Assembly: GCA_016717285.1 (NCBI GenBank)
Contig: JADKFU010000005.1
Location: 1,031,319-1,095,318, forward strand
Direction of reading: 5' to 3'
Length of the DNA: 64,000 nt
Origin: Chitinophagaceae bacterium
GTDB lineage: Bacteria > Bacteroidota > Bacteroidia > Chitinophagales > UBA10324
Part shown: in pieces, positions 2,914-58,702 of the stretch
Numbering within the stretch: the stretch's first letter is position 1
Layout: each line of letters starts with the position of its first letter
Made by a program: the position numbers and the translations under genes
The notes under the pieces: model-generated
Told to the model about the DNA's origin: nothing
The model's input: the letters and a program-made list of their open reading frames with translations, nothing else
The model's database searches: none

Positions 2914-3625
2914 GGTAGGTTAGAAACTTGGTGAATAATTCCGTTTGCGGCTGCTTCAAAATAGTTTTGTTCCCTTGCTCAACAATTTTTCCTTCGTTCA
3001 AAAAAACAATTTGGTCAGCTATATTGGCTGCAAAGCCAATAAGATGTGTTGCAATTAAAATTCCTGTTCCTTTCTGTGAAAGTTGTTTTACAAAGCGAAG
3101 CAGTTTACCAATGTGCTGAATGTCGAGTGCGCTTGTAATTTCATCAAGCAAAAGATATTTTGGTTTCAACAGCACTGCACGAATAAAAGCGATGCGCTGT
3201 TTTTGTCCAACGCTTATTTGATGCGGAAATCTTTTTAGCAGAGTGTCCACCTCAAAATAATTTGTCAATTCATCAAATTCAGTTTGACTAAAACTGATGC
3301 GCTGCTGTTGCAATGGCATCAGCAAATTGTCTTTTACTTTTAAATGTGGCCATAAATGAAATTGCTGAAATACGACTGACACCAAAGGGTGAATGTGATT
3401 TGGAAAAAATTTTCCGTTCATCGGAAAATTAAAGTGCCTTTCATCAATAATAATTTTACCTGTGTCAGGTTTTTCGAGTAATGAAAGATTGCGTAGGAGT
3501 GTGCTTTTGCCACCTCAACTTGGTCCTACAAGTGCAACTACATGTCCTGGAGTGACAACAATATCAATCTCCGAAAGAATTTTTCTTCCGGCAATAGATT
3601 TTGATATGTTGATGGCTTGTAGCAT
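2897..3625 (-). pseudogene. amino-acid-type ABC transporter ATP-binding protein with an in-frame TGA inside the Walker A motif
   Basis: Track ORFs 3515..3700 and 2897..3421 are one reading frame: ...VVALVGPS-TGA-GGKSTLLRNLSLLEKPDTGK...ISVGQKQRIAFIRAVLLKPKYLLLDEITSALD. The TGA lies at 3517..3515. The likely start is MLQAINIS at 3625. Confidence 0.8.
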
Positions 3626-16219: not shown

Positions 16220-16347
16220 AGAAGTTGTTTTGAAATCAATCAATATAATTGTTACATCGCTTACCCTTCGGCTGCGCTCAGGGTGCGCTTCTGGCAAAGC
16301 CGAACCAAAGAGCATTGTAAAAAAATTAGTTGATTTCGAAATTCTAA
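16220..16347 (-). repeat. MITE-like ~130-bp element, copy 1 (inverted relative to copies 2 and 3; one end shortened)
   Basis: Near-identical to the reverse complement of 19049-19183. Terminal inverted repeats GTTTTGAAATCAAT; internal CCCTTCGGCTGCGCTCAGGG core. Confidence 0.85.
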
Positions 16348-16383
16348 GTGAGCTGGAAGATTTCGAGGTAGCCTTGCACTTTC

Positions 16384-19048: not shown

Positions 19049-19183
19049 TTCTAAGAATCTGTTTTGAAATCAATTAATTTTTTTACAATGCTCTTTGGTT
19101 CGGCTTTGCCAGAAGCGCACCCTGAGCGCAGCCGAAGGGTAAGCGATGTAACAATTATATTGATTGATTTCAAAACAACTTCT
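19049..19183 (+). repeat. MITE-like ~135-bp element, copy 2
   Basis: Sequence: TTCTAAGAATCTGTTTTGAAATCAATTAATTTTTTTACAATGCTCTTTGGTTCGGCTTTGCCAGAAGCGCACCCTGAGCGCAGCCGAAGGGTAAGCGATGTAACAATTATATTGATTGATTTCAAAACAACTTCT. Almost identical to 32918-33052. Confidence 0.9.
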
Positions 19184-25293: not shown

Positions 25294-25353
25294 CAACAAT
25301 TTAGCAATTCAACAATTTAGCAATTCAACAATTTAGCAATTCAACAATTTAAC
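25294..25353. repeat. 16-bp tandem repeat CAACAATTTAGCAATT x3.7
   Basis: Read directly in the divergent intergenic region between the flippase and GT4 genes. Confidence 0.85.
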
Positions 25354-25423
25354 CATCCCACCATTTAGTCACCCTACCATTCAACCCAATAACAACCTAA
25401 TAACCAATAGTTATCTTTCGCCC

Positions 25424-30695: not shown

Positions 30696-30884
30696 GATAA
30701 AAGTGCATTGGTTGTTATAAACCGAAATAAACGAAAATTATAATAGGGAAGTCTGCTGATAAAAAATTGCATTTGATTTTAGCTGGATTTAGTTTTAGGA
30801 ATTTTTAAAATATTGTGTTGAAACATGGTTGTCTTTTCATTTTTTGTAACACGCCAAATTCATTCATTCATTTTACATTTCACG

Positions 30885-31056
30885 ATAATGTCGCTCCTAC
30901 GGAGCTTTCGGAATTTTGATGATACGATTTCTACCATAATGCCGCTCCTACGGAGCTTTCGGAATTTTGATGATACGATTTCTACCATAATGTCGCTCCT
31001 ACGGAGCTTTCGGAATTTTGATGATCGATTTCTACCATAATGCCGCTCCTACAGAG
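30885..31056. repeat. 51-bp tandem repeat x3.4, each unit containing the small hairpin GCTCC-TAC-GGAGC
   Basis: Unit starts at 30885, 30936, 30987 and 31037. Unit: ATAATGYCGCTCCTACGGAGCTTTCGGAATTTTGATGATACGATTTCTACC. Confidence 0.9.
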
Positions 31057-31057
31057 A

Positions 31058-31143
31058 CACTGACCACTGACCAATTACTAATGACCTATGACCAAGGACC
31101 GGACTAAGGACTAAGGACTAAGGACTAACGACTTACGACTCTC
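31058..31143. repeat. 7-bp-periodic tract ending in GACTAAG x3, GACTAAC, GACTTAC, GACTCTC
   Basis: Read directly: cactgac cactgac ... gactaag gactaag gactaag gactaac. Confidence 0.8.
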
Positions 31144-32700: not shown

Positions 32701-32830
32701 AGGTGAGGGAAGGGGTTGAAAAGTTTGAAATGTTTAAGGGTTTGAGAGGGTTTAAGAGTTTGAAGGGTTTAAGAGTTTGAAGGGTCTGAAATGTTTAGTG
32801 GTTGGTAGTGGTTGAAGTTTTTAAGTCCTA
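32701..32830. repeat. C-free (plus strand) low-complexity tract with GGGTTTAAGAGTTTGAA repeats; it forms the G-free leader of the C1 peptidase gene
   Basis: No C occurs on the plus strand from 32701 to about 32784. GGGTTTAAGAGTTTGAA is directly repeated. Confidence 0.8.
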
Positions 32831-32917: not shown

Positions 32918-33052
32918 TTCTAAGAATCTGTTTTGAAATCAATTAATTTTTTTACAATGCTCTTTGGTTCGGCTTTGCCAGAAGCGCACCCTGAGCGCAG
33001 CCGAAGGGTAAGCGATGTAACAATTATATTTATTGATTTCAAAACAACTTCT
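32918..33052 (+). repeat. MITE-like ~135-bp element, copy 3
   Basis: Near-identical to 19049-19183. Confidence 0.9.
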
Positions 33053-42483: not shown

Positions 42484-42580
42484 AGGAATTAGGAATTAGG
42501 AATTAAATTGGGACAAATAAGGTAGGATTTTCTAACAAGACTAAAGACTAACGACTAACGACTAAGGACTAACGACTAAG
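42484..42580. repeat. heptad microsatellites AGGAATT x3 (42484-42504) and GACTAAN x6 (42539-42580) between the ATPase and permease genes
   Basis: Read directly. Confidence 0.85.
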
Positions 42581-50224: not shown

Positions 50225-50503
50225 TTATTTACTGCTGCCTGCGCTATTTGCATGCAACGTTTTCTGGAGCTCATCAAGTTTTTTCTGAACCGTTTTCAAT
50301 TGTGAATTTTTGATCCAGACTTTCCGGGTTTCCAGCAACCAGCCTCCGGCAAATCCAACCACAAAAATTACGATGGTAACCAGTGACATCGAGCCTTCAA
50401 ATTTCCAGAACAGAAAGTGAAGTGACACCGTGGCAATATTTTGTATGGCGAAAATCAGCGCGATCACCAGTAAGATGATCGTAACAATGTAAATCCTGTT
50501 CAT
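50225..50503 (-). CDS. LapA-domain (DUF1049) small membrane protein
   Basis: Two TM helices with the QN..TV.L.F pattern (FAIQNIATVSLHFLFW) and a C-terminal coiled segment. Confidence 0.7.
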   Translation of the reverse strand: MNRIYIVTIILLVIALIFAIQNIATVSLHFLFWKFEGSMSLVTIVIFVVGFAGGWLLETRKVWIKNSQLKTVQKKLDELQKTLHANSAGSSK

Positions 50504-50539
50504 GAGAATTTATTTTTGGAAGGGGCGAAAGTTAGGAAG

Positions 50540-50897
50540 AAAATCGGCTTCTGAAATTCAGTCACTGAGTGCAGCCAAAAAAATTCGGTCACTGAGCGCA
50601 GCCGAAGTGCCCGAATTTTGGAAGTTGATTGATCGCGTATTTTTTTGCGCCCTTCGGCTACGCTCAGGAAGCAAAAAATTCGGTCACTGAGCGCAGCCGA
50701 AGTGCCCGAATTTTGGAAGTCGATTGATCGTGTATTTTTTTGCGCCCTTCGGCTACGCTGAGGGAGCAAAAAAGTCCCGGCTGCTGTATGAAGTCAAAAA
50801 AAATCGGTCACTGAGCGCAGCCGAAGTGCCCGAATTTTGAAGTAGACTGATCGCGTATTTTTTTGCGCCCTTCGGCTACGCTCAGGGAGCAAAAAAA
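50540..50897. repeat. hairpin-unit tandem array A (3 full units, 1 degenerate half, one 28-bp interruption)
   Basis: Full units at about 50577-50671, 50672-50767 and 50796-50889. See findings. Confidence 0.9.
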
Positions 50898-50904
50898 TCC
50901 TGAT

Positions 50905-53190
50905 TTATTCCTTCACCCATTTAATTATAGAAATATTTCCTGCTTCATCTGTGGCACGAACGAGGTATAGTCCAGGTAGTAATTCGTGAACATCAAACTG
51001 TGTTTGATCTGCTTCATCTGATAATTGCCTGTACAACTCCTTTCCTGAAAGATCGAAAACCTGAAGATTAACCATTCCTTCAAATCCATTCAACAACACA
51101 TTGATAATGTTTGTAGCAGGATTCGGATAGACCTTTACATTATTGGAAATTCCTGTTTCACTGATGCCTTCAATGGTAACACCGGACTTCGGAGGTACAA
51201 TATTCACTGTATAATCTTCTGTTTCACCTCGTGCATAGGATCCGCATGGAGAAGGCGGTACACCAAATATCATCATTACACGCATGCGGGTTAAGCCAGG
51301 TGTAGCATTTGCTGGAACGTTGAAATTCACACCAATCCATCCAAGGAAATCAGAAGAAATATTTACTGCCTGTTCGCCTGCATCTGTAAAATCATTATCA
51401 TGGTTATAGTCAATCCAGATACTGTAATTCTCGGTGAGTCCAAATGGCAACGCTGCCGATAGATACCCGGTTACAATAGAACCCTGAATCAGGTTAGTAC
51501 TAAGATTTGTGAAATCTCCATAGCCATTATTATTTCCGGTACTGTTTTGTATACCGCCAATCCAAACCAGAGAAAGGTATTCGAGTGATGCATCCAGACC
51601 GCCCACGCTACAATAACCCGTACCTTTAGTGGTGAAGTTCTTTGTATTAGAGAAGCCCGAAGGTCCACTGCTACAGACGGCCTCTATTGCATAATTATAG
51701 GAAGTGCCTGCTGTAAGTGCTTTTATTTTGATGGAAGTAAGATCAGTTGTGATAGTAGTCCAATCTGCGGCTGAACTCGTTTTATAATGGAGATGGTAAA
51801 GATAGGCACCAGCCACAGCCGCCCATGAAACCTTGGCAGTTGTGTCTGTAATGTTATTGGCCTTTAAGTTGGTTGGAATGCTACATGTTCCTGTACCATT
51901 GTGATCAAGAAAATGGAAGGCGGTCATATTCGTTCCGCTTAACACAAACAGACTGCTGTCATTGGCAAGCGTAGATGCGATGCCCCAACCTGAATAAATA
52001 TTTACGGAGTCGATCCATTGTATTGCTCCGCTATTGCTGTATTTCAAAGTAATCATTCGCAGGTAAGATGAGCCATTGGATTGTGTAAACATCGGACCGC
52101 CTTTCCCGGTTACAAAAACTTCTCCATTGGCCGTTGCAGAAAGGGCGCCCGGCGCCTCATCATTACCGGTGGTTTGGTTGTATCGTGCATTCCATAACAT
52201 GTTGCCGCTATTATTTACCTGGAAGGTTACCCAGTCAAAATAGGAAGCATTTAGATTGCCATAACCAATCACACTTAACTTGGTGGAAACCAATGTGAAA
52301 CTCCTCGCTGTTTCTTCACCGCCAAAATCATAACTCTTCTTCCAGGTCTGAACGCCGGCAGCATTAAACTTATAAATGATCATATCCATGCCACTGTTAG
52401 CTGACACCTGATTCGGATAATTGGTGAGAATGTATGAGTTTCCATTACCATCAATTTCAACATCTTGTCCCGAGTAACCTGTAAGATATTTGCTCCATAA
52501 AAATGTACCGGCAGTATCCCACGCTACTATCGAGAGGTTAGCTACATATTCAGACGTTCCTGTCACTATCACTAAATTATTTTTTAACCGCATGGATGCA
52601 AATCCGTGAATAGTTCCAAGGTTGACAGTGGTGTTTACCAACACTGTACCGGCCGGATTAAGTTTCATCAAAACAAAACCTGCGGGACTGGTGCCTGCTG
52701 TACCTATATACAGATTTCCGTTTTTATCGAGTTCACTGCGCAAGTTGAATTTCATACCTGTTGAGCTGCCTACAATATAACTGAGATCAATATTTTTTTT
52801 CCACAGCAAAGTTCCTGTTGAAGTGTATTTCAGCACAACAACAGCATTGGGATATTCCCAGGAAGAACCCCATGTATATCTGTAGCCCACAACATAAATA
52901 TCTTTGTTCTTGTCGCAGTTAATCCAAACAGGTTTTTCATAGTTGCCTGAAATACCCGAAGTAGAGATCCGTTCCCACAAGAAGTTCCCGAACTTATCAT
53001 ACTTGCGTGTGTAAGTATTCTGAGCTTGTATATAGCCGGCTACCACTACGTTATCTGATTTGTCGTGGGCAATCATCGAACCGGTTTTAAGATAACTGTC
53101 GGCTGGTTTGATCCAGTCAGTGGAATAAGTTGCAAAAGAATAGCTAGAAGCCATCAGCAAGAAAGCGATCAAGGGGATTATCTTTTTCAT
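50905..53190 (-). CDS. T9SS cargo protein: beta-propeller-like repeats + FN3 + GEVED domain + C-terminal sorting domain
   Basis: Signal peptide at the internal MKKIIPLIAFLLMASSYSFA (start moved from 53286 to 53190). FN3 (PTNLKANNITDTTAKVSW...), GEVED (ARGETEDYTV), and CTD (VKVYPNPATNIINV...GLYLVRA). Confidence 0.85.
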   Translation of the reverse strand: MKKIIPLIAFLLMASSYSFATYSTDWIKPADSYLKTGSMIAHDKSDNVVVAGYIQAQNTYTRKYDKFGNFLWERISTSGISGNYEKPVWINCDKNKDIYVVGYRYTWGSSWEYPNAVVVLKYTSTGTLLWKKNIDLSYIVGSSTGMKFNLRSELDKNGNLYIGTAGTSPAGFVLMKLNPAGTVLVNTTVNLGTIHGFASMRLKNNLVIVTGTSEYVANLSIVAWDTAGTFLWSKYLTGYSGQDVEIDGNGNSYILTNYPNQVSANSGMDMIIYKFNAAGVQTWKKSYDFGGEETARSFTLVSTKLSVIGYGNLNASYFDWVTFQVNNSGNMLWNARYNQTTGNDEAPGALSATANGEVFVTGKGGPMFTQSNGSSYLRMITLKYSNSGAIQWIDSVNIYSGWGIASTLANDSSLFVLSGTNMTAFHFLDHNGTGTCSIPTNLKANNITDTTAKVSWAAVAGAYLYHLHYKTSSAADWTTITTDLTSIKIKALTAGTSYNYAIEAVCSSGPSGFSNTKNFTTKGTGYCSVGGLDASLEYLSLVWIGGIQNSTGNNNGYGDFTNLSTNLIQGSIVTGYLSAALPFGLTENYSIWIDYNHDNDFTDAGEQAVNISSDFLGWIGVNFNVPANATPGLTRMRVMMIFGVPPSPCGSYARGETEDYTVNIVPPKSGVTIEGISETGISNNVKVYPNPATNIINVLLNGFEGMVNLQVFDLSGKELYRQLSDEADQTQFDVHELLPGLYLVRATDEAGNISIIKWVKE

Positions 53191-53437
53191 AGTATTAATT
53201 TTTGAATTTGTTAATGTAGCAGACTTATTTATTTGAAGATTGTAAAATTCTAAACTATGCTCTAGATTAACAATGACAATTGTCATGGTTGGTGGGTTTC
53301 TACCAGCATAAGCATTTTTACATGAACAAGATATTTTCGTTATTTAGTGAAGACAATTATTATTACCTCATCAGGAAAGCATTAGTGTTGAATCAGGCAG
53401 ATCGTACACCAGACAGGAAATGCTTGTTTTTTTAAGT

Positions 53438-53900
53438 AAAAAATTCGGTCACTGAGCGCAGCCGAAGTGCCCGAATTTTGGAAGTTGATTGATCGTGTAT
53501 TTTTTTGCGCCCTTCGGCTGCGCTCAGGGAGCAAAAAAATTCGGTCACTGAGCGCAGCCGAAGTGCCCGAATTTTGGAAGTTGATTGATCGTGTATTTTT
53601 TTGCGCCCTTCGGCTGCGCTCAGGGAGCAAAAAAATTCGGTCACGGCCGGGCCCCCGGGGGGGGGGGGGTTGGGAGCCTGAGCGAGCCGAAGTGCCCGAA
53701 TTTTGGAAGTTGATTGATCGCTTTTTTTGCGCCCTTCGGCTGCGCTCAGGGAGCAAAAAATTCGGTCACTGAGCGCAGCCGAAGTGCCCGAATTTCGGAA
53801 GTTGATTGATCGTGTATTTTTTTTGCGCCCTTCGGCTGCGCTCAGGGAGCAAAAAAAATTCGGCCGCTGAGTGGTGTCGAAAAAATTCGGTCTCTACAAC
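53438..53900. repeat. hairpin-unit tandem array B (4 units, one carrying a GC-only insert, plus degenerate ends)
   Basis: Units at about 53438-53532, 53533-53628, 53629-53753 and 53754-53850. Confidence 0.9.
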
Positions 53901-54070
53901 GAAGCAGCAAACTTTTTGAAAAGCAGCGAATTCAGATTGAAATACATCTTTGAATAAAAAACTGATAGATATGAATAGGTTTACCACAGCTATTCGGGAA
54001 TTCAAAGTGTCACTATCTAAGAATAATTCTTTTTTTTAGTAATTGCTAACCTAACCCAACAAATGATGAG

Positions 54071-54793
54071 ATGAAAATTAATTGTTTAGCACTGTTCATT
54101 GTTGTGATGATCTTAACTGTGATGAAATCTTTTGCACAGGCGGAGTTCAATTTTGGCCCTGTAGCAGGCATAAATGCATCAGGAGTTTATCATAATAAGT
54201 GCTATTATGAAAGTCAGACAAAAGAGCATCATTCCTTCGGGGTTCATCCTGTTTTTGGAGTTACGGCGGGAATATTTTCTCAATTGAAATGGAAGCATCT
54301 CTCACTTGATTTACAGGTTATCTATTCTCAATCCGGCAAGAAAACAGTGTATATCAATGATCCTGAGAAAACTACGGAATTCTGGTATTACTATAAGAAT
54401 GTACGTCATTATGAGTTTGCCTATTTGCAAATGCCTGTAACGCTGAATTATCATTTCCGGATCAAAAAAATGCATCCCTTTGCAGGATTTGGAATGGTGC
54501 CTTCTTACACCATTCGTGCTGAGGCGAAACAGTCCTATTCTCATGACCCGGAAATGAATTATACCAACAATTTTATAGAAGAAAGCAAAAATGATTTGAT
54601 GGGCTATACGCCACGGGAGTTGCAATTCACTTCTGTAATCGGTGCTGAACTCAACGATCACATGCAGGCATGCTTGTCTTATACGGTGGGTGGTAATTCT
54701 TTATACTTTTATCCATATAGCTGTATGGCAGAAAGCTTTACCAACAAGACATTATCGTTTCAGTTGCGTTATCTGATCCGGAATAGAAAATAA
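54071..54793 (+). CDS. outer-membrane beta-barrel (porin-family/PorT-like) protein
   Basis: Signal peptide ...SFAQAEF, alternating beta-strand pattern, C-terminal aromatic-rich strand. Confidence 0.6.
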   Translation: MKINCLALFIVVMILTVMKSFAQAEFNFGPVAGINASGVYHNKCYYESQTKEHHSFGVHPVFGVTAGIFSQLKWKHLSLDLQVIYSQSGKKTVYINDPEKTTEFWYYYKNVRHYEFAYLQMPVTLNYHFRIKKMHPFAGFGMVPSYTIRAEAKQSYSHDPEMNYTNNFIEESKNDLMGYTPRELQFTSVIGAELNDHMQACLSYTVGGNSLYFYPYSCMAESFTNKTLSFQLRYLIRNRK

Positions 54794-54896
54794 AATAACT
54801 TACAGTAATTGGTAAGAATACTTAGCTCAAGCAAGGTAGTCGCATGAAAAACCGTCCCGATGATTTGATTATTATTGCGATCATCTAAATAGATCT

Positions 54897-55463
54897 ATGA
54901 CTGCAGCGTTAAGAAAATTCATTTCAGATTATGTTGTACTCAGCAACAGAGAAATGGATAGCATTGTCAATAAGTTTAAAGTAAAAGCTGTTAGGAAAAA
55001 TGAATTCCTCTTACGTGAAGGACAGATTTGTAAGGACCTGGTTTTTGTGGAAGAAGGTTGTCTCAGGTTGTATTATGTTGCAGATGGCGTTGAAGTATCT
55101 GTTTGGTTTTCTTTTAAGCATTCATCGGCCATTGAAATTTCCAGTTTTCTCAGCGGAAAACCAACCAACTATTTTCTGCAGGCCACTGAAGACAGTGAAA
55201 TTTTGTTCCTTCCCAAAACAGAGTTGAATAAACTGTACCATTCACAACCGAAGGTGCAGGAGATGATGCGGCTATTTTTAGAAGACGTTGTATTGAATCT
55301 CATCGACCGGTTTACTGCTCTTCAAAGAGATGCTGCCGAAAAACGTTATAAAGATTTATTGAATAAACCTGCTTACCTGCAAAAAGTCCCGCAAAAATAT
55401 CTAGCCTCGTTCATTGGTGTAACTCCTACATCACTGAGCAGGATAAGAAGAAAAATGAAGTAA
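54897..55463 (+). CDS. Crp/Fnr-family transcriptional regulator
   Basis: cNMP-binding-like domain plus a C-terminal HTH (QKYLASFIGVTPTSLSRIRRK). Confidence 0.8.
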   Translation: MTAALRKFISDYVVLSNREMDSIVNKFKVKAVRKNEFLLREGQICKDLVFVEEGCLRLYYVADGVEVSVWFSFKHSSAIEISSFLSGKPTNYFLQATEDSEILFLPKTELNKLYHSQPKVQEMMRLFLEDVVLNLIDRFTALQRDAAEKRYKDLLNKPAYLQKVPQKYLASFIGVTPTSLSRIRRKMK

Positions 55464-55546
55464 TTCATTACTTGTCTTATGGCAACTTTTTTCTCTCTCC
55501 ATCTTTTTTACTTTGCATCATTAAATAATAATCAAACAAATTAATC

Positions 55547-56419
55547 ATGCAGGTAGCTTTTGTAACCTATAGCAAATTTCCTGATTTGACGGAGGACGAT
55601 CAACTGTTGATGCACTATTTAGTGCAAAAAAATATTACTGTAAGTCCTGTGCAGTGGGATGATAAAACGATCAACTGGCAGCAGTTTGATACCATCATAC
55701 TCCGTTCGATGTGGGATTATTTTGAAAGGCCGCATGAGTTTGATCAATGGCTTGATAAGCTTGAAGCGCTTGACTGCAACGTGTTAAACCCGCTCTCGGT
55801 AGTAAGGTGGAATCAGAACAAACATTATTTTAATGATTTCAGGCGTAAGGGTGTGCTGCTGCCAGCCTATGTTATTTGTTCGCGCAATGATAAGCAGACA
55901 TTAAAGAAAATAATGGAAGAAAGCGGATGGAGCAAAGCTGTTGTGAAGCCGGTTATTTCCGGAGGTGCTTACAATACTTGGGTTACAACTATTGATACTG
56001 TTGCCTCCGACGAAATACGTTTTGCAGAATTACTGAAAACCGGTGATGTGATTGTTCAGATTTTTGTGGAAGAAATTGTTACCAAAGGAGAATTGTCATT
56101 CATCTTCTTTAATAAAAAATTCAGTCATGCCATTTGTAAAAAAGCAAAGCACGGCGATTTCAGGGTGCAGACGCAATTTGGAGGAACGGCGGAAGTGATA
56201 CAACCTGATGCAGCTATTTTAATGCAGGCATCTGAATTGTTAAGCAGTATTGCAGAACCCTTACTTTATGCAAGAGTAGATGGAGTTGTAACCGATGATG
56301 GAAAATTTCTATTGATGGAATTAGAGTTGATTGAACCTACATTATCTTTTTTCATTAACGAGAATGCTTGTGAGAATTTTTACGATGCATTAGTAGAATT
56401 ATCAGAGACGAAATTCTAA
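55547..56419 (+). CDS. ATP-grasp domain protein (RimK/glutathione-synthetase-like)
   Basis: ...AVVKPVISGGAYNTW..., ...FRVQTQFGG..., ...YARVDGV...LLMELELIEPTLSF... pattern. Confidence 0.7.
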   Translation: MQVAFVTYSKFPDLTEDDQLLMHYLVQKNITVSPVQWDDKTINWQQFDTIILRSMWDYFERPHEFDQWLDKLEALDCNVLNPLSVVRWNQNKHYFNDFRRKGVLLPAYVICSRNDKQTLKKIMEESGWSKAVVKPVISGGAYNTWVTTIDTVASDEIRFAELLKTGDVIVQIFVEEIVTKGELSFIFFNKKFSHAICKKAKHGDFRVQTQFGGTAEVIQPDAAILMQASELLSSIAEPLLYARVDGVVTDDGKFLLMELELIEPTLSFFINENACENFYDALVELSETKF

Positions 56420-56422
56420 ACT

Positions 56423-56842
56423 AAAAATCGGTTACTGAGCGGAGCTCGAAAAGAAATCGGTCACTGAGCGCAGCCGAAGTGCCGGGATTTTTTAGATGAC
56501 TGGTTTCTTTTTTTTTGCGCCCTTCGGCTACGCTCAGGGAGCAAAAAAAAATTGGTCACTGAGCGGAGCCGAAGTGCCCGATTTTGAAGTTGACTGATCG
56601 CGTTTTTTTTTGCGCCCTTCGGCTGCGCTCAGGGAGCAAAAAAAATCGGTCACTGAGCGGAGCCGAAGTGCCCGGATTTTTTTAAATGACTGGTTTCTTT
56701 TTTTTTGCGCCCTTCGGCTACGCTCAGGGAGCAAAAAAAATCGGTCACTGAGCGGAGCCGAAGTGCCCGGATTTTTGAAGTTTGACTGATCGCGTTTTTT
56801 TTTTTTGCGCCCTTCGGCTACGCTCAGGGAGCAAAAAAAAAA
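56423..56842. repeat. hairpin-unit tandem array C (4 units with two alternating linker types, plus one degenerate half)
   Basis: Units at about 56449-56542, 56543-56637, 56638-56732 and 56733-56832. Confidence 0.9.
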
Positions 56843-56845
56843 TGA

Positions 56846-58702
56846 CTAAACTTTCTTCCCTTTCATAGCATCCAGGATCACCTTATCCATCACACGATGT
56901 GCAAAGGGTTGTGAATATTCATTTAGCTCCTCCATTTTGGTATGAATAAAATCTTTATCACCACTATCCAATGAATCTTTCAGAGCATTCATAAAAGAAC
57001 GCATGCCTTCAGCTTCTTCATTAGAAAGGAAACCGGCATTGCTCTTCAGAAATTTTTCGGCGGAAAGCAAAACCTGTTGCGCTTCTGTTTTTGCTTCCTG
57101 AACACTACGTGTCTGCATGTCATCTTTTGCATGGGTGATAGAATCCAGCAACATTTTTTCCACTTCCGCATCTGTCAATCCATATTGTGGTTTGATATCA
57201 ATGCTTTGTTCAAGTCCACTACGCAATTCCTTTGCTTTCACTTTTAGTATGCCATCAGCATTCAGGATAAAACTGATTTCAATTTTTGGAAAACCGGCAG
57301 GCATGGCAGGAATTCCTGATAGGATGAATTCTGCCAGCTTACGATTGTCTTTCACCACATCACGTTCGCCCTGGTACACTGCAATTTTCAGATTCTTTTG
57401 TCCGTCAACAGAAGTGGTGTATTGTCTTGCTGCGCTGGTTGGAATTTTTGAATTACGCGGAATAATCACATCCATCAGTTCACCAATAGTTTCGATGCCG
57501 AGTGAAAGCGGAGTGACATCGAGCAGTAAAATATCTTTTTGATTTCCTGCTAATACATCAGCCTGTATCGCCGCTCCCAATGCAACTACTTCATCCGGAT
57601 TTAGTGAATCATAAACGGGCTTGCCGAAGAATGCAGCCACTGTTTGATTTACCAATGGAATACGAGTAGCTCCGCCCACCATCACGATTGTTTCAATATC
57701 GCTGGTCGTCAGCTTTGCATCTTTTAATGCATGCTTTACTGCCACCATTGTTTTTTCAACAAGGTGGTTGGTTGCTGCTTCGAATTCAGTTTTTGTGATG
57801 TTGCAATTGAAGCTGCCTTGATGGCCTGAATAGCTATCGTTTTGGCTCAGATAAATTTTGGCTTCTTCCGCCTGAAGACGTAGCGATTGACTCAACGATT
57901 TATCACTAACGAGTTCCTTTTCTGATAGCTGATTTTGTTTCAGCCAGAAATCTACAATAGCGCGATCGAAATCATCGCCACCGAGAAATGTATCTCCATG
58001 TGTAGAGAGCACTTCAAATATTCCGCCCTGAATTTTCAGAATGGAAATATCAAAAGTTCCTCCACCGAGATCATAAACAGCAATTGTTTTTTCTTCGTCC
58101 GGATTCAATCCAATACCATACGCGAGTGAAGCTGCCGTTGGTTCATTGATGATGCGTAACACTTCCAGTCCGGCTAATTTTCCGGCATCGCGTGTTGCCT
58201 GCCTTTGTGAATCGTTGAAGTATGCCGGAACGGTGATCACTACTTTCTTTACTGCTGCCTTCATCACTTTTTCTGCACGTTCTTTCAGCTCTTTCAAGAT
58301 GAAAGAGGATAGTTCAATGGGAGAGTAGAAAATGTTACCGACACGAATCTTAACCAATTGCTCCGTGTCTTCATCAATAATTTTATAACCGAAATATCTT
58401 TCATGAGCCTTCACATCTTTATACGACTTTCCCATCAATCGCTTTACGGAATAAATGGTGTTTTGCGGATCGGAAATCAGATGCTGCCTTGCCGCTGATC
58501 CTACGACTAATTTTTCAGGTGATTCAAAATGCACGATCGAAGGAACGAGCGAATGCACGCCGTCTTCCTTTACGGTTTCCGCGTGGCCGGTTTCCCTGTT
58601 AACAAAAGCAATCAATGAATTAGTGGTACCGAGATCGATGCCTGCAATCAGCTCTTTTTTTTCAATCGAAGCCTCTTTAATATTTATGGAAATTTTTGCC
58701 AT
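56846..58702 (-). CDS. hscA: Hsp70-family Fe-S cluster assembly chaperone HscA-like
   Basis: ...IAGIDLGTTNSLIAFV..., ...VITVPAYFNDSQRQATRDAG..., ...DLGGGTFDISIL.... 618 aa and an HscA-type N-terminal extension. Confidence 0.8.
   Translation of the reverse strand: MAKISINIKEASIEKKELIAGIDLGTTNSLIAFVNRETGHAETVKEDGVHSLVPSIVHFESPEKLVVGSAARQHLISDPQNTIYSVKRLMGKSYKDVKAHERYFGYKIIDEDTEQLVKIRVGNIFYSPIELSSFILKELKERAEKVMKAAVKKVVITVPAYFNDSQRQATRDAGKLAGLEVLRIINEPTAASLAYGIGLNPDEEKTIAVYDLGGGTFDISILKIQGGIFEVLSTHGDTFLGGDDFDRAIVDFWLKQNQLSEKELVSDKSLSQSLRLQAEEAKIYLSQNDSYSGHQGSFNCNITKTEFEAATNHLVEKTMVAVKHALKDAKLTTSDIETIVMVGGATRIPLVNQTVAAFFGKPVYDSLNPDEVVALGAAIQADVLAGNQKDILLLDVTPLSLGIETIGELMDVIIPRNSKIPTSAARQYTTSVDGQKNLKIAVYQGERDVVKDNRKLAEFILSGIPAMPAGFPKIEISFILNADGILKVKAKELRSGLEQSIDIKPQYGLTDAEVEKMLLDSITHAKDDMQTRSVQEAKTEAQQVLLSAEKFLKSNAGFLSNEEAEGMRSFMNALKDSLDSGDKDFIHTKMEELNEYSQPFAHRVMDKVILDAMKGKKV

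Follow-up and report, generated by a model that had tools for sequence, protein, structure and literature searches.

Inverted hairpin repeats gathered in clusters resembling bacterial interspersed mosaic elements (BIMEs), and a small nuclease gene flanked by such repeats, are already known. The definition of repetitive extragenic palindromic (REP) sequences and BIMEs includes a GTAG or CGTC tag at the end of the palindrome (PMC3733652), and GCGNAGC is an extraordinarily stable DNA mini-hairpin (PMC13037366). The window considered here is a stretch of 64,000 nucleotides (contig JADKFU010000005.1, positions 1,031,319 to 1,095,318) from the Chitinophagaceae bacterium assembly GCA_016717285.1, and three of its intergenic gaps, between hscA and a lapA-domain gene, are filled with tandem arrays, A, B, and C, of a 95-bp unit. 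On balance, these arrays can be considered clusters of miniatures, devoid of an open reading frame (ORF), of a hairpin element associated with GIY-YIG nuclease genes, which expanded locally and serve as rearrangement breakpoints. The argument is built on the anatomy of a hairpin module inside the unit, on the conservation of this module with covariation across phyla, on its statistical link to GIY-YIG genes, and on the dynamics of the arrays together with the breakpoints found at them. With a GIY-YIG partner of the UPF0213 family, a structured core common to many phyla, and neither an Rfam family nor a published description found for it, the system is at least a variant of those already known.

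The tandem arrays in three intergenic gaps reported in the original prediction were confirmed, with a period of 95–96 bp, by Tandem Repeats Finder and direct reading of the window (Table 1). Array A is placed between the start of the lapA-domain gene (50503) and the stop of a gene for a type IX secretion system (T9SS) cargo protein (50905), array B between the divergent genes for the T9SS cargo and an outer membrane protein (OMP), and array C between the convergent ATP-grasp gene and hscA, 3 nt short of the hscA stop codon (56846); arrays A and C thus adjoin the 3' ends of minus-strand genes, as had been noticed earlier. Tandem Repeats Finder delimits array A as 50578–50900 (period 95, and also 123 with the 28-nt insert), array B as 53438–53863 (period 96, the opening 2.2 copies being 100% identical), and array C as 56449–56840 (period 95, 4.1 copies). 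Across the arrays the units are 81–99% identical, and the linkers are repeated too. Within array B the units share 97–99% identity, and array C displays a two-unit higher-order period, C1 being 94% identical to C3 and C2 92% identical to C4, with 85–89% identity between adjacent units; judged from the sequence, this period is most simply read as the mark of unequal crossing-over. Target-site duplications are not readable at the units, because the A-runs that bound them are common to neighbours and make the flanks ambiguous. The 16-mer CTGAGCGCAGCCGAAG has 24 matches in the window against 0.01 expected (15 exact, 8 with one mismatch, and 1 with two), close to an earlier hand count of about 15 exact and about 10 one-mismatch copies; the exact matches at 16266, 19122, and 32991 are part of a separate ~130-bp repeat family. 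A 32-nt G-rich insert, ggccgggcccccggggggggggggttgggagc, interrupts module 1 of unit B3 at 53646–53677 and looks like a sequencing or polishing artefact of the metagenome-assembled genome (MAG) rather than biology.

The arms of the unit had been described as pairing over 16 bp in a very stable stem-loop, and the long hairpin, a 16-bp perfect core with flanking pairs, does fold on both strands (-23.6 and -23.4 kcal/mol by DNA folding of the whole unit, z about -5). Its standing as the basic unit, in turn, has to be corrected, since each arm belongs to its own hairpin module of ~30 nt: the unit is a pair of inverted modules, a (+) module, a 33-nt AT-rich linker, and a (-) module. The separate module hairpins, of -9.1 and -11.3 kcal/mol, have a summed stability about equal to that of the long hairpin. 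The module is laid out as a variable stem, (C/T)T, a tandem G·A, the mini-hairpin GCGNAG(C/T), C, GA, A(G/A), and a variable stem, its core being (C/T)TGAGC-loop-CGAA(G/A). Module 1 reads AAAATTCGG[TCACTGAGCGCAGCCGAAGTGC]CCGAATTTT on the plus strand, the arm forming the loop and the inner part of the stem of a separate hairpin, and module 2 reads TTTTTTTGC[TCCCTGAGCGCAGCCGAAGGGC]GCAAAAAAA on the minus strand. The fold common to the two runs stem / one mismatch / CNCT:AGNG / GA·GA / GC-GNA-GC, and for the arm with its own A/T-run stem the predicted fold is (((((((((.((((..((...))...)))).))))))))). With the covariance model R1, 24 modules of 25–40 bits were found in the window, 10 plus and 11 minus ones in the arrays and 3 in the ~130-bp repeats; the module 1 copies score 37.8–39.8 bits (E about 1e-9) and the module 2 copies 25.5–37.1 bits. 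In the arrays the modules strictly alternate in orientation, joined in turn by a short A-run linker (~20 nt) and by a longer one that leaves ~44 nt between cores. As the ~130-bp repeat carries the module at its centre, the module occurs in at least three repeat contexts in the source genome.

The core of the module is by no means restricted to this genome. When one genome per species was scanned with the 19-mer pattern CTGAGCGNAGCCGAAGKGC, at least 120 loci were obtained, and among the matches listed the core is present in more than 10 phyla, including Acidobacteriota, Chloroflexota, Cyanobacteria, Bacteroidota, Gammaproteobacteria, Planctomycetota, and others, as well as in cultured isolates (Methylotuvimicrobium buryatense 5G, Nostoc, Pedobacter suwonensis, Neolewinella antarctica, and a Flavobacterium). 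The sequence is therefore not the orphan without nameable relatives for which it had been taken, as its core recurs in many phyla and beside GIY-YIG nuclease genes. The bases directly flanking the core covary as A–T or C–G pairs, and in 319 distinct instances the three core-closing pairs are Watson–Crick or wobble in 98%, 95%, and 92%, with several pair types. In an alignment of 148 sequences, pair 8-23 is CG in 121, UA in 21, GC in 2, and unpaired in 3; pair 7-24 is CG in 72, GC in 37, and AU in 29; pair 6-25 is CG in 72, GC in 35, and UG in 22. The covariation score of the closing stem is 0.433, versus 0.169 after shuffling (none of 500 shuffles as high) and at most 0.18 in slid controls. 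The N of the GNA loop is free (A 43%, G 23%, C 18%, T 16%). Only 20% of the core hits are within ORFs of at least 200 aa, though such ORFs make up 69% of the bases, and the modules show no bias in orientation with respect to the neighbouring genes (39 sense and 43 antisense past 3' ends, 24 and 16 before 5' ends), which fits an element acting at the DNA level.

The whole unit behaves differently from its core: nhmmer searches with it through 209 loci returned, beyond the window and the related locus L127, matches at the level of the core only, and the full unit appears to be lineage-restricted. The suggested match to a known non-coding RNA family was not obtained, as Rfam 15 gave no match at gathering score in the window, chance-level hits only when the arrays were searched in E-value mode, and, in gathering mode, no family at the modules of 38 other loci. 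Literature searches found no published account of the module or of GIY-YIG-linked hairpin repeats, and the module motif is missing from the surveys of stem-loop and REP families found there.

Some further observations concern the core. In many of the hits from Acidobacteriota, Chloroflexota, and Gammaproteobacteria about 10 nt on its 5' side, GGAG[CT][CT]T[GA][TC]C, are also conserved, which is beyond what the hairpin alone explains. The 19-mer core is present in 25 stretches of IMG/VR viral contigs (L210–L234), mostly with covarying flanks and in one contig in four copies; no GIY-YIG ORF was found beside the core in these stretches, and viral contigs of this kind are a possible route of spread. 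In M. buryatense 5G a long CRISPR-DR4 array is preceded, at a distance of ~350 nt, by a module (L039, 3358–3376) that falls in or close to the leader.

A protein partner is suggested by the multi-copy loci of Neolewinella (L116) and Flavobacterium (L087), in which an ORF of ~100 aa lies amid the repeats: in L116 a two-module unit of ~122 bp forms an array of five copies beside a GIY-YIG gene, and in L087 arrays flank such a gene on both sides. At six of the 120 motif-anchored loci listed, a PF01541 GIY-YIG ORF has motif copies directly adjacent to it. The encoded proteins, of ~100 aa, consist of the catalytic domain and a ~25-aa 'ECQN.TH' tail and belong to the UPF0213 family (PDB 1ZG2, 1YWL). 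In a reciprocal test, an alignment of five of these proteins, with the protein alone as the query, retrieved 80 metagenomic loci, and a generalised core, [CG]TGAGC-N3-6-CGAA[GC], was sought within 250 bp of the gene. It is present at 53 of the 80, with a density of 3.64/kb near the gene versus 0.087/kb more than 500 bp away, a 42-fold local enrichment. Upstream of the gene the copies are mostly sense (36 versus 14 antisense), downstream mostly antisense (45 versus 28 sense), the usual spacing being 35–80 nt for the sense copy upstream and 5–35 nt for the inverted copy downstream. An inverted pair of nearest copies brackets the ORF in 22 of the 72 evaluable loci (L168, L131, and L193 are examples), and in L168 and L190 perfect terminal inverted repeats of 29 nt, which include the core, surround the ORF. 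A module pair in (+)/(-) orientation without any ORF, the modules 34 nt apart, is found in Fluviicola (L053). In an all-against-all comparison of the GIY-YIG loci, similarity was mostly limited to the ORF, and no clean element boundaries were seen. Since the core lies beside GIY-YIG genes, the likely protein partner is a GIY-YIG nuclease and not a REP-associated tyrosine transposase (RAYT). Locus L171 contains two GIY-YIG genes of one subfamily in tandem, at 2580–2813 and 3001–3236.

Comparison with related genomes links the arrays to rearrangements. In five relatives (L121–L124 and L126; HscA 82–84% identical) the lapA-domain gene directly follows hscA, in the order Peptidase_C25, (OmpA), hscA, lapA-domain gene, glycosyltransferase, GH57, and neither the 16-mer nor the unit is found in their contigs; the sequence upstream of lapA, to about 50560 in the window, is conserved in these relatives without the unit. 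As they have neither the arrays nor the four genes between them, region 50561–56842 is an insertion relative to all five. In a closer relative, L127 (GCA_040006655.1), the shared blocks are about 89–91% identical at the nucleotide level, window positions 54409–56422 being homologous to L127 1–2016, and follow the order OMP–Crp–ATP-grasp, one degenerate unit plus a terminator, the T9SS gene, ~2.5 units, and hscA. The T9SS cargo protein is 95% identical to its L127 homologue, whose gene lies on the opposite flank of block 2. The homology blocks stop at window positions 56422, 50903, and 53432, that is, at the edges of the arrays, which means that the two gene blocks exchanged places, each keeping its orientation. 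The presence/absence polymorphism raised in the original prediction is thus real, the unit being absent in five relatives and rearranged, with other copy numbers, in L127. The window and L127 share the point at which array and hscA stop codon meet, which dates the arrays to before the divergence of these lineages.

The terminator of L127 is a canonical hairpin (caggtcgc...gcgacctg followed by TTTT) at 2133–2177, between the single unit and the stop of the T9SS gene; it is absent at the corresponding site of the window, 50897–50905. The start of the linker, CGAATTTTGGAAGTTGATT, is identical at 15 of 19 positions to the native lapA upstream region of relatives devoid of the unit (window 50536–50560, L121 12095–12113), and the idea that the linker was copied from that sequence was set aside, as 15 of 300 shuffles match as well and the likeness may be due to chance.

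The unit shares the module–linker–module layout with the GIY-YIG loci minus the ORF and therefore looks like an ORF-less miniature, whose descent from a GIY-YIG element we infer by analogy with the REP doublets (REPINs) that accompany a RAYT and the MITEs that accompany an insertion sequence. In the mechanism proposed, a putative GIY-YIG nuclease encoded elsewhere in the genome would recognise the extruded or single-stranded hairpin and nick it there, and new copies would be seeded by break-induced copying or recombination. Once two or more copies are neighbours, unequal crossing-over could expand and homogenise the arrays, which would then offer both portable homology and break sites, so that the segments between them might be inserted, excised, and re-inserted. 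Such traffic would account for the four genes between hscA and lapA and for the opposite block order in L127. Of the roles originally proposed for the arrays, that of a proliferating selfish element is best supported by the new evidence.

Several results weigh against this reading. Neither the window nor L127 contains a GIY-YIG ORF, and no GIY-YIG element with the flanks or linker of the unit was found by nhmmer among the 209 loci. The motif is absent at 27 of the 80 GIY-YIG loci and, conversely, a GIY-YIG gene is absent within 8 kb at 114 of the 120 motif loci listed. An exact copy of the full 95-bp unit was not found in 241 million metagenome records, plasmids and phages yielded no match to the unit, and within the window it is confined to the hscA–lapA locus instead of being dispersed. 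Unequal crossing-over, for which no nuclease is needed, leaves signatures such as the higher-order period seen in array C and the near-identical units of array B. Finally, homing of GIY-YIG genes into hairpins could equally be the source of the association.

The last point leads to the main rival of the miniature-element reading, according to which the modules are an independent repeat family and a target, not a cargo: UPF0213 genes of the homing type insert into them, and the arrays grew by slippage or unequal crossing-over only. The GIY-YIG ORFs do lie inside inverted module pairs, as if the gene had landed in a pre-existing spacer, the modules far outnumber the genes, and the periodicity of array C and uniformity of array B need nothing more; moreover, REPs are known targets of insertion sequences (Tobes and Pareja, as quoted in PMC3116915). 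However, without a protein that reads it, the cross-phylum conservation of the core is left unexplained, and the nuclease is the sole candidate seen, whereas the 29-nt perfect terminal inverted repeats of the GIY-YIG copies in L168 and L190 resemble element ends. This alternative is regarded as unlikely, though it is the one that survives best.

A function for the host is more doubtful still. The hairpins would be stacked terminators or insulators, or stabilisers of mRNA 3' ends, kept by selection between differently oriented genes, which agrees with their stability, with arrays A and C starting 3–8 nt from the stop codons of minus-strand genes, with the T-run that follows module 1 on the minus strand, and with modules being, across genomes, twice as frequent past 3' ends (82) as before 5' ends (40). 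Nevertheless, a terminator scan (GC-rich stem, loop of 3–8 nt, T-run not more than 2 nt from the stem) gave 3 hits in the region against 6.8 expected and none in the arrays, so that no array hairpin qualifies as one of the stacked terminators of the original prediction; the loops are of 12 nt, and the T-run belongs to the stem. Whichever strand is read, the 5' side of module 2 is T7 and its 3' side A7, and the modules are, as given above, unbiased in strand relative to the upstream gene. Relatives manage without any unit at hscA–lapA, array B sits between divergent promoters, and a single hairpin would be enough, which makes three or four tandem copies superfluous.

It is very improbable that the units are ordinary REP doublets forming hairpins (REPINs), served by a RAYT, an IS200-like Y1 transposase, located elsewhere in the genome. 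Inverted palindromic units, alternating linkers, and tandem clustering are typical of REPs and BIMEs (PMC3733652; PMC3116915), but a conserved GTAG or CGTC tag is lacking here, GTAG appearing only where the free N is T, and the gene found beside the modules encodes a GIY-YIG nuclease. No IS200-like ORF was detected at E<=10 in the window, in agreement with the original prediction, or in 129 loci, although the test was a weak one. Just as improbable is a structured RNA, a cis-regulatory or small-RNA motif with a tandem G·A internal loop and a GNA loop, that an RNA-binding protein would recognise. The stem covaries, the purine-rich internal loop is invariant, and the upstream copy is sense-oriented in the presumptive 5' UTR of the GIY-YIG genes; however, a DNA hairpin would covary equally, there is no strand bias with respect to host genes, each unit uses both orientations, and no Rfam family matches in the window and the 38 other loci. 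An assembly artefact or collapsed repeat, brought to mind by the origin of the sequence from a MAG and by the G-rich insert in unit B3, can practically be dismissed, as the unit family is found at matching genes in the independent assembly L127, the units differ by ordered point substitutions, and the flanks are colinear with those of relatives.

Three other candidates were considered and rejected. The core has a CUGA...GAA look, but the extra core nucleotides or the bulge required in a hammerhead, twister, or k-turn are absent, and Rfam gave no match. An integron cassette array does not apply to a unit without the GTTRRRY core, present several times per junction, between gene blocks on opposite strands; no search for an integrase was made. 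In a CRISPR array, the repeats would not be inverted nor the 'spacers' themselves repeated, as they are here at the unit identity given above.

Table 1. Repeat arrays, hairpin modules, and neighbouring genes in the window (positions in nt from its first letter; MITE, miniature inverted-repeat transposable element).
Feature	Position	Strand	Remarks
Array A	50561–50897	+	degenerate module 50561–50577, units A1–A3, 28-nt insert
Units of array A	A1 50577–50671, A2 50672–50767, A3 50796–50897		28-nt insert separates A2 and A3
Array B	53437–53900	+	four units, B1–B4, degenerate tail to 53900
Units of array B	B1 53437–53532, B2 53533–53628, B3 53629–53753, B4 53754–53850
Array C	56423–56842	+	degenerate head 56423–56448, then units C1–C4
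Units of array C	C1 56449–56543, C2 56544–56637, C3 56638–56732, C4 56733–56832
Module 1, example	53445–53474	+	stem, T, CACT, GA, GCGCAGC, C, GA, AGTG, C, stem
Module 1, copies in arrays (n=10)	50585, 50680, 50804, 53445, 53541, 53762, 56457, 56552, 56646, 56741
Module 2, example	53505–53534	-	outer stems T7GC/GCA7
Module 2, copies in arrays (n=11)	50645, 50740, 50863, 53505, 53601, 53727, 53823, 56515, 56610, 56705, 56805
~130-bp MITE-like repeat	19050–19183	+	terminal inverted repeats GTTTTGAAATCAAT..., core module at centre
~130-bp MITE-like repeat, further copies	16220–16348, 32919–33052	-, +	near-identical, three in all
T9SS cargo gene (block 1)	50905–53190	-	fn3, GEVED, Por_Secre_tail; promoter region to 53432
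Gene block 2	54071–56419	+	OMP-like 54071–54793, Crp/cNMP-binding regulator 54897–55463, ATP-grasp DcsG_N 55547–56419
hscA	56846–58702	-	conserved right flank
lapA-domain gene	50225–50503	-	conserved left flank

Apart from the arrays and the MITE-like repeats, the window contains several short tandem repeats. At 30877–31140 a 51-bp repeat in 3.6 copies, with a small hairpin GCTCC-TAC-GGAGC, is followed by runs of the heptamers TGACCAA, GGACTAA, and GACTAAC, the last of which is found again at 42539–42579. Heptamer runs also flank the module in Gallionella (L011) and in cyanobacteria (L048, L071, and L140), and contig L125 ends in such runs shortly past hscA. A 17-nt repeat, GGGTTTAAGAGTTTGAA (32709–32796), is located directly upstream of one of the MITE-like copies, and a 16-nt repeat, CAACAATTTAGCAATT, occupies 25294–25386.

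More tentatively than for the arrays themselves, it is possible that a widespread and undescribed kind of bacterial selfish DNA is involved, in which a GIY-YIG nuclease of the UPF0213/YhbQ type is the enzyme of a hairpin-ended element. If so, its structured ends, the tandem G·A with GCGNAGC, would have given rise to ORF-less miniatures in great numbers in 10 phyla or more, as a second and mechanistically independent counterpart of the REPIN–RAYT system, with the arrays as hubs of recombination by which neighbouring gene blocks are shuffled. The UPF0213 GIY-YIG proteins, a large family with known structures and no known role, would gain a testable function and a substrate, and an enzyme neither of the HUH nor of the DDE type would join the short list of those maintaining miniature repeats. 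The very common 'junk' hairpin repeats of environmental bacteria of many phyla, with their spurious ORFs, would also be explained. Arrays are found where gene blocks have been inserted or reordered among close relatives, which bears on the movement of accessory genes without classical transposons. On the practical side, hairpin repeats of this kind disrupt short-read assembly and mislead gene callers.

Among the known systems, free-standing GIY-YIG homing endonucleases (Seg of phage T4 and the I-TevI family) are likewise selfish GIY-YIG genes, thought to spread by cleavage and repair, but they have a long C-terminal DNA-binding domain and a unique site, whereas the proteins considered here are of ~100 aa and their presumed substrate is a repeated structured hairpin. 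The small dispersed repeats (SDRs) of Nostoc punctiforme, reportedly described by Elhai et al. in 2008, are said to have conserved cores of 21–27 nt and variable inverted-repeat flanks and to be nested in further repeats and in heptamer runs; the Nostoc hits of the core have an SDR look. The two are set apart, by description, in that no SDR has been found outside the Nostocaceae (PMC5861425), unlike the cross-phylum core of the module. The apex of the module is exactly the d(GCGNAGC) mini-hairpin with N free (PMC13037366), which as such is a physico-chemical motif and no genetic element, whereas in the module it is set between the tandem G·A and a covarying stem.

MITEs, such as Correia/NEMIS, ERIC, RUP, and Nezha, resemble the 95-bp unit in their small size, the lack of an ORF, and terminal inverted repeats capable of folding into hairpins, and the unit would, by the same analogy, have arisen by deletion from an element that carries a gene; the inverted-repeat core of the unit is common to the modules that bracket GIY-YIG ORFs, and a parent with the unit's own flanks was not found. 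Unlike in MITEs, there is no parent with a DDE transposase and no readable target-site duplication, and in the window tandem arrays take the place of dispersed single insertions. With REPs and BIMEs the modules have in common that they are imperfect palindromes of 20–40 nt in alternating orientation (10 plus, 11 minus) with distinct classes of linkers, and the formal likeness to BIME and REPIN clusters seen in the original prediction holds, as short and long linkers alternate between inverted palindromic units; neither GTAG nor CGTC is invariant in the 148 aligned modules. The likeness extends to the REPIN–RAYT system, in which inverted short palindromes and a short spacer fold into one long hairpin, here of -23.6 kcal/mol, and in which mostly intergenic copies far outnumber a small nuclease-type gene that is itself flanked by repeats. 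The associated gene, however, encodes a GIY-YIG nuclease of UPF0213 and not, as RAYT, an HUH Y1 transposase, and whereas REPs co-vary with their RAYT lineage by lineage, the loop and internal loop of the module are conserved across phyla.

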